From assembly GCA_041242255.1 (NCBI GenBank), contig JBESAV010000001.1, forward strand, positions 603,449 through 667,448: a stretch of 64,000 nucleotides of DNA. The letters run 5' to 3'. Shown one piece after another: positions 37,015-44,140 of this stretch. Source of the stretch: Candidatus Altimarinota bacterium (GTDB taxonomy: Bacteria; Patescibacteriota; Gracilibacteria; UBA1369; GCA-2718715). The position numbers and the translations under genes are program-made. The notes under the pieces are model-generated. The model made no database searches and was not told where the DNA came from. It was given only the letters and a program-made list of their open reading frames with translations. Positions within the stretch are counted from its first letter, which is position 1. Each line of letters starts with the position of its first letter.

Positions 37015-37114
37015 AAAAAAGTCACAAAAAAGGTTTGACTTAACAACTCCTCTGAGTATAATGCCTATGCTTTCAAACAACAGAGAGACGGAAGGAAGCC
37101 AAGATCATTAACAG
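37015..37114 (+). promoter_or_regulatory. rRNA promoter/leader module copy 1 (16S): TTGACT-16-TATAAT plus boxA-like element
   Basis: -35 at 37035-40 and -10 at 37057-62. boxA-like TGCTTTCAAACAA at 37068-80. Near-identical to 40731-40830. Confidence 0.75.
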
Positions 37115-37206
37115 TTAGTTCACAACAGAGAATTAATCTTGATTGTATTTTAAAAACAATTGAACATTTATAGTTCAGGATTTTAAGCATTATGCTTAGA
37201 ACTTTT

Positions 37207-38688
37207 CTAATGGAGAGTTTGATCCTGGCTCAGGATTAACGCTGGCGGAATGTATAATACATGCAAGTCGAGCGATAAGTTTTGGTAGCTTGCTACCGAA
37301 ATGGACAGCGGCGAACGAGCGAGTAACACGTTAGAACCTGCCCCGAACTCAGGGATAAGCACTGGAAACGGTGTCTAATACCGGATAGTCTCGAAAGAGT
37401 AAAGTTTTTTCGGTTCGGGAGGGGCTTGCGGCCTATCAGCTTGTTGGTGAGGTAAAGGCTCACCAAGGCAATGACGGGTAACTGGTCTGAGAGGATGACC
37501 AGTCGCGATGGGACTGAGACACGGCCCATACTCCTACGGGAGGCAGCAGTAGGGAATCTTCCACAATGGACGAAAGTCTGATGGAGCAATTCCGCGTGAT
37601 TGATGAAGCGTTTCGGCGTGTAAAGATCTTTTCTGGGGGAAGAATTATGACGGTACCCTAGGAATAAGCACCGGCTAACTCCGTGCCAGCAGCCGCGGTA
37701 ATACGGAGGGTGCAAGCGTTATCCGGAATCATTGGGCGTAAAGCGTCTGTAGGCGGTTAAATAAGTATGATATGAAAGACTATGGCTCAACCATGGGAAC
37801 GTATTGTAAACTGTTTAACTAGAGGACTGGAGAGGTGTGTAGAATTCTGCATGTAGGGGTAAAATCCGTAGATATGCAGAGGAATACCAAAAGCGAAGGC
37901 AGCACACTGGACAGTTTCTGACGCTCAGAGACGAAAGCTTGGGTAGCGAACGGGATTAGATACCCCGGTAGTCCAAGCCGTAAACGATGAACACTCGATG
38001 TTAGGCTTTTCAATCGGCCTAGTGTCCAAGCTAACGCGTTAAGTGTTCCGCCTGGGGAGTACGATCGCAAGATTAAAACTCAAAGGAATAGACGGGGACC
38101 CACACAAGCGGTGGAGCATCTGGTTTAATTTGATAATAAGCGGGGAACCTTACCTGGCCTTGACATCTTTTTGAATTTCCTAGAGATAGGAAAGTGCCTT
38201 CGGGAGCAAAAATGACAGGCGCTGCATGGTTGTCGTCAGCTCGTGCCTTGAGGTGTTCGGTTAAGTCCGTGAACGAGCGCAACCCTAGTCATGTGTTGGA
38301 TTTTTCACATGAGACTGCCGGCTACAAGTCGGAGGAAGGTTAGGATGACGTCAAATCAGCATGGCCCTTATGGCCAGGGCTACACAGGTGCTACAATGGT
38401 GTATACAACGGGCAGCGAAGCAGTAATGTGGAGCCAATCCCTTAAAGTACATCTAAGTTCGGATTGAGGGCTGCAACTCGCCCTTATGAAGTTGGAATCG
38501 CTAGTAACCGCATATCAGCAATGGTGCGGTGAATATGTTCCTGGGTCTTGTACTCACCGCCCGTCACGTCACGAAAGTTGGGAGTGCCCGAAGTACCTCG
38601 GTTCTGAGGTCCTAAGGCAAAACCAGTGATTGGGACGAAGTCGTAACAAGGTATCCGTAGGTGAACCTGCGGATGGAATACCTCCTTT
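37207..38688 (+). rRNA. rrs: 16S ribosomal RNA
   Basis: AGAGTTTGATCCTGGCTCAG near the 5' end, GTGCCAGCAGCCGCGGTAA, and the 3' end GTAACAAGGTATCCGTAGGTGAACCTGCGGATGGAATACCTCCTTT. About 1.48 kb with no large insertion. Confidence 0.97.
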
Positions 38689-38806
38689 TATAGGAGATGC
38701 CACACTCTAGTAATAGAAGTGTCAGGTATGATTGAACGGTAGACTTCATGTCTACGAGACATTCAAGTAATTATTTCTCTGTTGTGCACTGATTGTTAAA
38801 ACATTA

Positions 38807-38832
38807 AAACTACCCTAATAGGTAGTTTTTTT
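38807..38832 (+). terminator. intrinsic terminator downstream of 16S
   Basis: AAACTACCctaataGGTAGTTTttttt, directly after the 16S leader/trailer processing-stem partner (38768-38795). Confidence 0.7.
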
Positions 38833-38872
38833 TGTGTTTTATGTTATAATTATAAGATTTAAATAAATCTTC

Positions 38873-40732: not shown

Positions 40733-40830
40733 AAAAGTCACAAAAAAGGTTTGACTTACTCTTTCGCCTGAGTATAATGCCTATGCTTTCAAACAACAGA
40801 GAGACGGAAGGAAGCCAAGATCATTGACAG
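40731..40830 (+). promoter_or_regulatory. rRNA promoter/leader module copy 2 (23S-5S)
   Basis: -35 TTGACT at 40751-56 and -10 TATAAT at 40773-78. boxA-like TGCTTTCAAACAA at 40784-96. Identical to copy 1 except for the block inside the spacer and 1 nt near the 3' end. Confidence 0.75.
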
Positions 40831-40917
40831 AAAGATGTGAAAAGTAATTTTACTGAAATAACGATAGTAATGATAATTAAAAGACACCAAAAACAAGTAC
40901 TTGTTGAAACAAGTGCT

Positions 40918-43894
40918 GGTTAAAACTGTAAGTTTAAGTTACGTAATGTATATAGTGGATGCCTCGACTCTAAATTCCGATGAAGGACGTGGCCAGCTGC
41001 GATAAGCCTCGGCGAGCTGTGAGCAAGCTTTGACCCGGGGATTTCCGAATGGGGAAACCTTATACAAGTAAAGTTGTATAGTCCGCGTAGCGGATGGACA
41101 CTCAGTGAACTGAAACATCTAAGTAACTGAGGAAGAGAAATCAATAGAGACTCCCTGAGTAGTGGCGAGCGAAAAGGGATCAGCCCAAACCAGTATTCGT
41201 ACTGGGGTTGTAGGACCTCGACATGGAATACCAAAATTATAGAAAAACGCTTTGGAAAGAGCGACCAAAGAAGGTGATAGTCCTGTATTTGAAATAGTTT
41301 TGTGACCTAGAGTGTTCCTGAGTATGGTCGGACACGTGAAATCCGGCTTGAATCCGGGAGGACCACCTCCCAAGGCTAAGTAGATTTAGAGATCAATAGC
41401 GAACTAGTACCGTGAGGGAAAGGTGAAAAGCACCCCGAGAGGGGGATGAAATAGAACCTGAAACTATATACTGATAAAGAGTCGAAGGCTTTTATAGCTG
41501 ACGGCGTACTTTTTGTAGAACGGGCCATCGAGTTAGCCGTATTAGGCAGATTAAGGCAGTAAATAGCCGAAGTCATAGTGAAAGCGAGGATTAATAGTCC
41601 GCACGTCTAATGCGCTAGACCCGAAACCGGGCGAGCTACTTATGGGCAGGTTGAAGCAAGGGTAAGACCTTGTGGAGGACCGAACACACGGATGTTACAA
41701 GATCCGGTGATGACCTGTGAGTAGAGCTGAAATTGCAATCGAGCTCGGAGATAGCTGGTTCTCCTCGAAATAGCTTTAGGGCTAGCCTCGAGTAAATAGC
41801 ATGTATGGGGTAGAGCGCTGTTTAGGCTAGGGGGCGAAATAAGCCTACCAAACCTTGATAAACTTCGAATACATATATGTGTTTCTCGGGAGTCAGACCA
41901 TGACAGCGAAGTGCCATGGTCGAAAGGGTAACAGCCCAGATCACCGTCTAAGGTCCCAAATAATGTCTAAGTGGTAAAGGAAGTGAAGATACATAAACAA
42001 CCAGGAGGTTGGCTTAGAAGCAGCCATCCTTTAAAGAGTGCGTAACAGCCCACTGGTCGAGTGTTTCTGCGCCGAAAATACAACGGGGCTTAAGGCATTA
42101 ACCGAAGACGTGAATATATTTATATATGGTAGAGGAGCGTTGTAGTCAGCGTTGAAGGTAGATCGTGAGGTCTGCTGGAGCGTCTACAAGTGAGAATGAT
42201 GGCATGAGTAACTTAAATTAAGGTGAAAACCCTTAACACCAAAAACCCAAGGTTTCCTACGCAATGGCGATCAACGTAGGGTTAGTCGGGCCTAAGGCGT
42301 ATCCGAAAGGAGAAGTCGATGGACATCAGGTTAATATTCCTGAACAATGTATGTTTCGCCCAAGCAAATTTGGATTCAATTTGTTTCTGTAATTTCTCTT
42401 CGGAGACTTTACCTTAACTTTGCGATGAATTAGGCGCTAACTAAGGAGGGACGGAGCGTGTTAATCTAAGCTCATTAATGAATTTGAGTACAAGCTGTAA
42501 GCTTATGCACTAGTAGGAAAATCCGCTAGAGTTCGCGAGCAGTGATGTAGGCTCTCAAGCTTGCTTGAGAAAATTTAGATGATATATGCTTCCAAGAAAA
42601 TCTTCGTAGTGAGAAACATGTGTTACCGTACCGCAAACCAACACAGGTGGGTGAGTTGAGAATACTAAGGTGTCGGGATAACTACGCTTAAGGAACTCGG
42701 CAAAACAGCAGGAGTAACTTAGGGATAATCCTTGCCAACCTATGAGTTTTATAATTCATGGGTAGGCCGCAGCGAAAGACTTCAGGCGACTGTTTAACAA
42801 AAACACAGGTCTCTGCAAAACCGTAAGGTGACGTATAGGGGCTGACCCCTGCCCAGTGCCAGAAGGTTACGAGGCGAGCTTCACGGTTCAAATCTAAGCC
42901 CTGGTGAACGGCGGCCGTAACTATAACGGTCCTAAGGTAGCGAAATTCCTTGTCGGGTAAGTTCCGACCCGCACGAATGGGGTAACGGTCTGAAGACTGT
43001 CTCAAGCGTAGACCCGGTGAAATTGCAATATCGGTAAAAATGCCGATTAACCACAGAAAGACGAAAAGACCCCGTGCAGCTTTACTACAGTTTGACATTG
43101 AGTGGGGGTATAATTTGTGCAGCATAGGTGGGAGACTTTGAAACGTAGGCGCAAGCAGACGTGGAGTCATCATTGAGATACCACTCTTATTATACTCTAG
43201 CTCTAATCTTTCCAAGAAGGAGACAGTGTTTGATGGGTAGTTTAACTGGGGCGGTTACCTCCTAAAGAGTAACGGAGGTGTACTAAGGTTATCTAGATCC
43301 GGATGGAAATCGGATTGATAGTGTATTCGCATAAGATAGCTTGAATGTAAGGCCTACAAGCCGAGCAAGTGCGAAAGCAGGTGAAAGTGAACCGGTGCCT
43401 ACACGTGGGTGTGGTACCGATCAACGGATAAAAGTTACGCCGGGGATAACAGGCTTATTGCTTCCAAGAGTTCATATCGACGAAGCAGTTTGGCACCTCG
43501 ATGTCGGCTCGTCGCATCCTGGGGGTGGAGAAGCTCCCAAGGGTATGGCTGTTCGCCATTTAAAGCGGTACGCGAGCTGGGTTCAGAACGTCGTGAGACA
43601 GTTTGGCCTCTATCTTCTGTGGTCGTTGGAAAATTGAGAGAATTTGCTCCTAGTACGAGAGGACCGGAGTGAACGAACCTCTAGTGTATCAGTTGTTCCG
43701 TCAGGGGCAATGCTGAGTAGCTATGTTCGGTCGTGATAACCGCTGAAGGCATCTAAGCGGGAAGCCGATCTTAAGATAAATTTTCCCTATAGCTTCCATG
43801 TAGACTACGTGGTTGATAGGCTAGCAGTGTAAGTGCAGAGATGTACTCAGCTTACTAGTACTAATAAGCAATTGACCTTAAACTTACAGAAACC
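40918..43894 (+). rRNA. rrl: 23S ribosomal RNA
   Basis: 5' GGTTAAAACTGTAAGT...GGTGGATGCCT pairs with 3' ...CCTTAAACTTACAGAAACC (helix 1). Conserved GTACCGCAAACCAACACAGGT, GACGGAAAGACCCCGTG-like and the sarcin-ricin AGTACGAGAGGACC. Confidence 0.96.
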
Positions 43895-44031
43895 TCAGCT
43901 CAGAGATTTACTTATAAGATCTTGTAGGTAAAAACTTTGTGCTGACATTTAACCAGCTCTTGTCTTAACAAGTTGAGTTAAAAACTATTACTTTTCACAA
44001 TCTTTCTTCAATACTAAGAAGAGAGATTTTA

Positions 44032-44140
44032 CCTTGGTGCTTATAGATGGTGGGGTACACCTGTTCCCATTTCGAACACAGAAGTTAAGCCACTATTCGC
44101 CGATGATACTGTTCAACGGTAAAGTAGGGCGGCGCCAAGG
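44032..44140 (+). rRNA. rrf: 5S ribosomal RNA
   Basis: CCTTGGTGC...CCTGTTCCCATTTCGAACACAGAAGTTAAGC...GGCGCCAAGG with terminal helix complementarity. Confidence 0.92.

Follow-up and report, generated by a model that had tools for sequence, protein, structure and literature searches.

How does a bacterium run its ribosomal RNA (rRNA) genes when the 16S gene lies apart from the 23S-5S pair? The question is raised by a 64,000-nucleotide stretch of contig JBESAV010000001.1 (positions 603,449 to 667,448; hereafter the window), in which protein genes and transfer RNA (tRNA) genes lie between 16S and 23S. The host is a Peregrinibacteria bacterium, belonging to the Candidate Phyla Radiation (CPR), with a small genome, and the window contains one rRNA copy. 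The explanation that we favor, and consider likely, is that the locus works as several independent transcription units, that the split is ancestral, and that in this Peregrinibacteria locus the 16S promoter was recently overwritten by gene conversion from the 23S promoter.

Layout of the locus and its proposed transcription units

Searches with Rfam and ARAGORN located the RNA genes, and three open reading frames (ORFs) occupy the spacer:

37207-38688, plus strand: 16S rRNA gene, full length (Rfam, 1468.5 bits, model positions 1-1533)
38873-39703, plus strand: ORF1, 276 amino acids, a fast-evolving orphan
39687-40088, minus strand: ORF2, 133 amino acids, hydrophobic by eye
40202-40279, minus strand: tRNA-Ile(GAT), second gene of an antisense tRNA unit (ARAGORN, Rfam)
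40305-40381, minus strand: tRNA-Ala(TGC), first gene of that unit (ARAGORN, Rfam)
40499-40732, plus strand: ORF3, 77 amino acids, conserved, with two hydrophobic segments (123 homologs)
40932-43885, plus strand: 23S rRNA gene, full length and without a large insertion (Rfam, 2564 bits, model positions 1-2925)
44033-44140, plus strand: 5S rRNA gene (Rfam)

An earlier note on this DNA had given identical 16S bounds, and had placed the three ORFs, all at these coordinates, and two opposite-strand tRNA genes, recovered here by ARAGORN, between the rRNA genes. Its 23S start (40918) is about 14 nt too early, positions 40919-40931 belonging to the leader helix. The interval between the two large genes (38689-40931) measures 2,243 bp, which exceeds the 1500 bp between closest 16S and 23S ends beyond which Brewer et al. 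call rRNA genes unlinked. With ORF2, tRNA-Ile and tRNA-Ala on the minus strand, the locus also falls into the class of Lui et al. 2021 (Fig 3D; PMC8172020) that combines a distance of more than 2 kb with opposite-strand genes between.

Both large rRNA genes are preceded by a copy of one direct repeat of 100 nt (37015-37114 and 40731-40830, 92% identical). Each copy comprises an A-rich, UP-like tract, the hexamers TTGACT and TATAAT spaced by 16 nt, a GCC discriminator and roughly 45 nt of leader common to both copies, with the boxA-like sequence GATCATT(A/G)ACAG at its end. The hexamer pair matches the sigma-70 consensus at 11/12 positions in both copies, and these are the top two promoter matches of the 8-kb region, consistent with the earlier proposal that a 16S promoter is repeated as a second copy before 23S. 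Two exact sub-blocks of the module occur twice each in 64 kb, against 0 expected, and the repeat ends exactly at the point where each leader begins to pair with its own trailer. The possibility that the module is a dispersed repeat or mobile element was rejected, as there are just two copies in 64 kb, each before an rRNA gene. The predicted signals of the locus are as follows:

37015-37114, plus strand: promoter/leader module, copy 1, of 16S (-35 TTGACT at 37035-37040, -10 TATAAT at 37057-37062)
40731-40830, plus strand: promoter/leader module, copy 2, of 23S (-35 TTGACT at 40751-40756, -10 TATAAT at 40773-40778)
37103-37114, plus strand: boxA-like element GATCATTAACAG, a candidate antitermination site overlapping the start of the helix arm (similar motif at the same position in relatives' leaders)
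40819-40830, plus strand: boxA-like element GATCATTGACAG in the 23S leader
38806-38836, plus strand: intrinsic-terminator-like hairpin and T-run, end of the 16S unit (pattern scan; hairpin 38806-38829, dG -8.3)
38842-38850, plus strand: extended -10 (TGnTATAAT), candidate ORF1 promoter, read from the sequence
40414-40441, minus strand: candidate promoter of the tRNA unit, TTGCAG-16-TAAGAT (score 8/12)
40185-40206, minus strand: terminator-like hairpin and T-run ending the antisense tRNA unit (pattern scan; equivalents in most relatives)
44016-44032, plus strand: helix I extension of 5S, 5' strand (AAGAAGAGAGATTTTAC)
44141-44157, plus strand: 3' strand of that extension, running into a T6 run (pairing part 44141-44151; same design in relatives)

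The elements GATCATTAACAG and GATCATTGACAG agree at 8/11 positions with the E. coli boxA TGCTCTTTAACAA, and motifs of the type (C/T)(C/T)TT(A/G)A(C/A)A occupy the equivalent leader position in relatives; both elements may act in antitermination. Two further boxA candidates were dropped: TGCTTTCAAACAA (37068-37080) sits at the predicted transcription start and, unlike GATCATTAACAG, is not conserved in position, while at the place of GATCATTAAAGA, upstream of tRNA-Ala on the minus strand, relatives have a small hairpin of variable sequence (CTTTGAT...ATCAAAG, CTTTCATATGAAAG).

Each large gene is also enclosed by complementary flanks of its own, all on the plus strand:

37108-37137: leader arm of the 16S processing helix, an RNase III-type stem (duplex prediction, covariation in 6 genomes)
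38770-38799: trailer arm of the 16S processing helix, pairing with 37108-37137
40823-40848: outer leader arm of 23S, pairing with 43987-44012
43987-44012: outer trailer arm of 23S, closing before 5S
40899-40924: inner leader arm of 23S, pairing with 43948-43973
43948-43973: inner trailer arm of 23S, pairing with 40899-40924

The 16S helix spans 30 nt at 87% complementarity, the outer 23S helix 26 nt at 77% and the inner one 26 nt at 88%, and duplex energies depart from those of shuffled sequences by z = -5.1 (16S) and -4.2 (23S). The 16S stem had previously been read as 37112-37137 with 38768-38795, close to the arms found here; the 23S stem, read as 40829-40848 with 43987-44007 and closing before 5S, stands as the outer helix, while the inner helix had been missed. 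For a covariation test in 6 genomes, arms were picked by duplex prediction. Pairing holds in 92.7% of cells over the 25 pairs, and both partners have changed in 10 of the 25; not one of the 500 shuffles scored as high, and slid registers gave 36-46% paired, indicating that the 16S helix is maintained by compensatory change. The 23S and 5S helices also co-vary in the genomes at hand, for 23S in a comparison of two genomes, the second of which (L025; such labels are our own for related loci and contigs) has comparable two-part 23S helices of different sequence. The leader/trailer helices are candidate sites of cutting by RNase III.

The terminator that the earlier note placed at 38807-38832 was recovered by the pattern scan as a hairpin at 38806-38829 followed by a T-run, about 140 nt beyond the 16S gene. 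At the other end of the locus, the terminal helix of 5S continues for 5-10 bp beyond the gene, where an A-rich upstream strand meets a complementary downstream strand that runs into 5-8 T's at +6 to +12. Such an extension, with co-varying sequence, is also present in L025, L031, L032, L034, L035 and L036. Positions 44141-44157 are the probable end of the 23S-5S unit, and the whole 5S may serve as its terminator hairpin. As far as sequence and comparison reach, the earlier proposal that 16S and 23S-5S form separate transcription units holds: each has a predicted promoter, the 16S terminator is conserved, opposite-strand genes lie between and the helices are self-contained.

To place this layout in its lineage, we assembled about 20 related loci and contigs; the locus search used a 3-sequence ORF3 alignment. 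The atypical 3' end of the 16S gene (GGATGGAATACCTCCTTT) matches 12 metagenome-assembled contigs, among whose titles are 9 Peregrinibacteria/Peribacteria, 1 Gracilibacteria, 1 'Patescibacteria group' and 2 'bacterium'; the closest full-length 16S is 87% identical. The distance between 16S and 23S is 1.4-8.8 kb in all ten loci that show both genes. A hairpin followed by at least six T's stands at +100 to +185 past 16S in 14/16 loci, a count that takes in the window; the background rate is 0.028 per 100 nt per strand. A promoter of the form TTGAC(T/A)-N15-19-TA(T/G/A)AAT lies 132-378 nt upstream of 12/12 23S genes and 142-176 nt upstream of 6/6 16S genes examined, and two promoters are already present in relatives down to about 80% 16S identity. 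Since distant relatives carry both promoters and the 16S terminator recurs in 14/16 loci, the comparison indicates that the split rRNA layout is ancestral to the lineage. The suggestion that the re-wiring, by promoter duplication plus a new terminator, is directly visible here does not survive, as two promoters are already present at about 80% 16S identity and the 16S terminator recurs in most of the loci scanned.

The locus might instead be one functional operon with a very long spacer, in which transcription begun at the 16S promoter carries on into 23S-5S, with the second promoter serving only as an internal booster. The boxA-like elements in both leaders could confer resistance to termination, and the pattern scan found no terminator-like site between ORF3 and the 23S promoter. 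Read-through would, however, have to pass a hairpin and T-run conserved in position past 16S, and would meet two tRNA genes with a conserved promoter and terminator, followed by ORF2, transcribed head-on. In relatives the spacer reaches 8.8 kb with many unrelated genes, and each rRNA gene pairs solely with its own flanks. We therefore regard a single operon as quite unlikely.

Origin of the promoter repeat

The closest relative at hand, L036, is an 18-kb scaffold from another sample that is about 90% identical across the locus. Its gene order (ClpP, 16S, an ORF, ORF2, antisense tRNAs, ORF3, 23S, 5S) is that of the window. In alignment A3 the 16S-upstream region of the window was set, one segment at a time, against the 23S-upstream region of the window itself and against the 16S-upstream region of L036:

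UP and -35, 37015-37040: 26/26 identical to window 23S-upstream; 58% to L036 16S-upstream
Spacer, 37041-37056: 56% to window 23S-upstream; 62% to L036 16S-upstream
-10 and leader, 37057-37108: 52/52 to window 23S-upstream; 63% to L036 16S-upstream
Whole tract, 37015-37108: 93% to window 23S-upstream; 62% to L036 16S-upstream
Downstream, 37109-37150: 45% to window 23S-upstream; 42/42 to L036 16S-upstream

The region is thus of the 23S type from 37015 to 37108 and switches abruptly to the L036 16S type at 37108/37109. L036's own 16S and 23S modules are 59% identical despite the same split layout, and in L034, L035, L031 and L010 the two promoters resemble each other at background level (56-60%). 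A promoter repeat like that of the window was sought in L008, L010, L031, L034, L035 and L036, and none was found in them, bar a 29-nt upstream similarity in L010; the sequences of L015 and L018, also examined, do not include the 16S upstream region. Because L036 combines the same layout with unlike promoters, the near-identical copy in the window appears to have recently overwritten a 16S promoter that was already there, and not to be what unlinked the genes. The direction is suggested by the UP/-35 segment of the L036 16S promoter, which is 88% identical to that of the distant L014; the 16S promoter of L036 would therefore be of the older type, and the 23S module would have been copied onto 16S in the lineage of the window. 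In a BLAST comparison, the L036 23S promoter matches the window 16S promoter at 88%. Paralogs closer than orthologs and a sharp breakpoint against a close relative are the marks of conversion, and both are found here (93% versus 62%, then 100% from 37109), with one close relative. We read this pattern as ectopic, non-reciprocal gene conversion from 23S to 16S, through which some 94 nt at the 16S promoter and the start of its leader gave way to the 23S version.

A rival to conversion takes up the idea of the earlier note: the 100-nt repeat would go back to an old duplication, which made the second promoter when the operon broke. In this reading, purifying selection would have held the copies near-identical since then. 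The transcribed part of the module is indeed conserved between species, the 23S leader of the window being 94-96% identical to those of L019 and L036 over 52 nt. The 16S promoter of L014 is also 71-73% identical to the 23S promoters of L015, L018, L023 and L025, against about 53-65% for other modules, which hints at an older shared ancestry. An old duplication fits poorly, however, with L036, whose modules are only 59% identical in a locus of the same gene order, or with the jump of the window 16S upstream region from 62% to 100% identity with L036 16S at 37108/37109. It also leaves aside L034, L035, L010 and L031, which have two promoters without detectable paralogy. We consider this explanation very unlikely.

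Several observations weigh against the conversion and independent-unit account. The 16-nt spacers (37041-37056 and 40757-40772) are just 56% identical between flanks that are fully identical over 26 nt upstream and 52 nt downstream, so that a single clean conversion tract is insufficient, and either a second tract or strong selection for the flanking blocks would be required. For both its direction and its recency, the conversion claim depends on L036, a single close relative, and on the 16S promoter of a single outgroup, L014. All promoters, terminators and processing sites named here are predicted, and promoter-like hexamers occur at chance level in this AT-rich region (16 found versus 16.9 expected from shuffles); our promoter calls are accordingly based on score, position, duplication and conservation in relatives. 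Antitermination complexes on rRNA can pass some terminators, so some 16S transcripts might continue into ORF1. Finally, Pfam scans of the neighboring ORFs yielded no rnc, although no dedicated rnc search was made.

If conversion and independent units are nonetheless accepted, the locus would be the single rRNA locus of an approximately 1 Mb Peregrinibacteria genome, with at least four transcription units that work independently. In the 16S unit, transcription from a strong promoter preceded by an A-rich tract would pass through a boxA-like leader and the 16S gene, held in an RNase III-type helix, to the hairpin/T-run terminator. ORF1 is probably transcribed from its own extended -10 promoter. 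On the opposite strand, the tRNA-Ala and then tRNA-Ile unit would use its own promoter and terminator, with ORF2 following. After ORF3, the second strong promoter would drive 23S, held in its two-part helix, and 5S, whose extended terminal helix leads into a T-run. Following conversion, both rRNA genes would start from identical UP/-35, -10/discriminator and first approximately 45 transcribed bases while each kept its own helix arm. With identical modules, 16S and 23S would share their control of initiation and probably also of antitermination, with a possible selective benefit, and the gene-specific helices would direct separate RNase III-type processing. A bolder extension holds that repeated, selected conversion between the 16S and 23S modules replaces linkage in balancing output after operon break-up, and that ORF3 is functionally coupled to rRNA transcription rather than a syntenic passenger; we view it as speculative and rather unlikely.

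The assembly itself is well supported by independent data. The strain is present in the runs SRR28144504/-520/-530/-572. The interval 37930-40257 is covered at 99.7-100% identity by Logan contigs of this strain, drawn from three further sequencing runs, and other contigs cover 33803-37081 at 100%, including the ClpP-side junction with the 16S-specific promoter spacer; among these, the independent contig L040 spans 35196-37081 at 100% identity. An assembly artefact, whether a chimeric join or a repeat collapse, is extremely improbable, because the same-strain contigs, although they stop at points ambiguous to an assembler (37081, inside the exact repeat, and 40257, inside tRNA-Ile, as expected of short-read graphs), reproduce both the ClpP-promoter junction and the 16S-ORF1-ORF2-tRNA-Ile stretch, because L036, L034, L035 and L032/L033, from other samples and species, show the same order and flanking genes, and because the ten other loci containing both ORF3 and 23S all have ORF3 ahead of 23S.

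Comparison of synteny with related genomes had been proposed as a check, and order or flanks are shared by L036, L034, L035 and L032. ClpP stands beside 16S in L013, L014, L034, L035 and L036, and genes of the PrgI family and TraC-like type stand beside 5S (window 45108-46220 and 46339-48153) in L032, L034 and L035. The flanking synteny from ClpP to TraC-like/PrgI is common to the complete genome CP064962.1 (L034), L035 and L032, with LepA also present in L032 and L035. With both sides conserved, the rRNA locus is embedded in stable synteny, and independent same-strain assemblies together with syntenic relatives appear to rule out mis-assembly.

Spacer genes and the antisense tRNA unit

ORF3 is a conserved spacer gene for a putative small membrane protein. 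It has 123 homologs, of which the few with an organism name are Peregrinibacteria or Gracilibacteria, and in the related loci a homolog stands upstream of 23S wherever a 23S gene is present, across Peregrinibacteria with about 80% 16S identity. Those in the compared loci (L008-L010, L015, L018-L036) are 77-88 amino acids long and share the motif YRE..YRFTGK..AEK..GGT. Compared with L036, the gene differs at 19/5/35 sites by codon position, a distribution that marks it as protein-coding, with 27 synonymous and 16 non-synonymous codon changes. In the window its stop codon overlaps the start of the 23S promoter module; ORF3 abuts the 23S promoter in most loci, with one extra ORF intervening in L032, L034 and L035. 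Pfam and NCBIfam yielded only sub-threshold noise for ORF3 and assigned it to no family.

The other two ORFs, neither of which has a Pfam match, are more restricted. ORF1 matched only itself among 5.8 billion proteins, its sole relative being a weakly similar protein encoded at the corresponding place in L037 (23% identity, E 6e-11). ORF2 has three homologs of about 70% identity, all in close relatives, and occupies the same position in L036-L038. Spacer content varies among species and includes PP2C-like genes, GNAT and DUF2779. Two loci carry, between the antisense tRNAs and ORF3, a gene of about 510 amino acids that fuses HTH_3 to an EPSP-synthase/MurA-like domain (L015 5514-7037, L018 840-2414); it is absent from the window.

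The tRNA pair is antisense, Ala then Ile, in the clade of the window and sense, Ile then Ala, in L008, L010 and L012, so that simply inverting the canonical spacer pair would not yield the antisense state. ARAGORN finds antisense Ala-then-Ile in the window, L015 and L018, and Rfam finds two adjacent opposite-strand tRNAs in L022-L024, L026, L027 and L032-L036. As its match is only 8/12, we treat the promoter of this unit in the window as putative. The eight relatives examined have stronger candidates at equal distance from tRNA-Ala (TTGATT/TTGAAT/TTGAAA, a spacer of about 17 nt, and TAGAAT/TAAAAT/TATAAG/TAATAT).

Relation to other rRNA gene arrangements

In the E. coli-type rrn operon, a promoter and boxA leader are followed by 16S, tRNA-Ile/Ala, boxA, 23S, 5S and a terminator. 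The window keeps the rRNA order, the identity of the tRNAs (Ile-GAT and Ala-UGC), the 16S and 23S helices, boxA-like elements before both genes and a GC-rich discriminator. It differs in having a terminator after 16S, antisense tRNAs that run from Ala to Ile, a spacer with three protein genes and a full second promoter before 23S.

Buchnera aphidicola and Wolbachia pipientis are insect endosymbionts with reduced genomes and rRNA genes that lie far apart, each unit having a putative promoter and terminator; to our knowledge, neither a conserved spacer-encoded protein nor an antisense Ile/Ala tRNA unit has been described in them. The 16S and 23S-5S genes of the window likewise each have a putative promoter and terminator. 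For these two species, the unlinked 16S and 23S-5S units are taken here as they are cited in PMC8172020 (refs 60-61). In Helicobacter pylori, 16S and 23S-5S are split and each has a long leader/trailer stem cut by RNase III (Iost et al. 2019, PMC6582327). The window resembles it in that 16S lies apart from 23S-5S and each has its own leader/trailer stem. In H. pylori, however, the genes are far apart, processing has been shown experimentally and an antisense RNA covers the 23S leader, whereas in the window the genes lie 2.2 kb apart behind near-identical promoters, and the account is drawn from sequence.

Patescibacteria are among the clades reported to have unlinked rRNA genes (Brewer et al. 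2019, 10.1101/705046), and 27/34 circularised CPR genomes are unlinked (Lui et al. 2021, PMC8172020). The arrangement was thus already known from CPR bacteria, and the earlier note overstated its novelty. The published cases share with the window same-strand 16S and 23S-5S genes more than 1500 or 2000 bp apart, intervening protein and tRNA genes, opposite-strand ones among them, and a small uncultured CPR genome. Lui et al. scored two Gracilibacteria genomes as operonic (PMC8172020), unlike every Peregrinibacteria locus examined here, which is split or has a spacer of more than 1.3 kb with a protein gene; the main text of the paper on five Peribacter genomes is silent on how rRNA genes are arranged.

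Both surveys classify by distance and strand only, and the present account adds promoters, terminators, processing helices and promoter homogenisation. Relative to the papers searched, we regard three points as modestly new: conversion that would homogenise the promoter/leader modules, a lineage-wide 16S terminator with an antisense tRNA unit, and a conserved small gene upstream of the 23S promoter. Together these give a base-level, comparatively supported account of how a CPR bacterium may run split rRNA genes, and leave unchanged the known picture that such genes are frequent in CPR. They suggest that the regulatory modules of two unlinked rRNA genes can be homogenised by recombination, which bears on how 16S and 23S are kept in balance. 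For long-amplicon methods that span 16S, the internal transcribed spacer and 23S, Peregrinibacteria would give an atypically long product, and probably none where the spacer is large.

Some further features of these loci were observed. In L013 (JACRID010000057.1, 2373-5336) the 16S gene extends about 2.9 kb from its 5' end to the 3'-terminal motif, implying large insertions; a survey lists Peregrinibacteria 16S genes as free of insertions (10.1101/2024.02.27.582315). A 3.8-kb 23S gene in L031 (10624-14402) has an internal ORF carrying a 23S_rRNA_IVP domain (PF05635). The alignment of L036 with the window ends beyond tRNA-Trp (window counterpart 33545-33619), and the L036 sequence there (9981-14470) encodes a serine recombinase, a Fic protein and an MmeI-like methyltransferase/restriction gene, so that it looks like an integrated element. 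On that side of the window, positions 26940-33019 encode large secreted or surface proteins with SLH domains, including a beta-helix protein of 1144 amino acids and a 443-amino-acid protein that combines SLH with a staphylococcal-nuclease domain.

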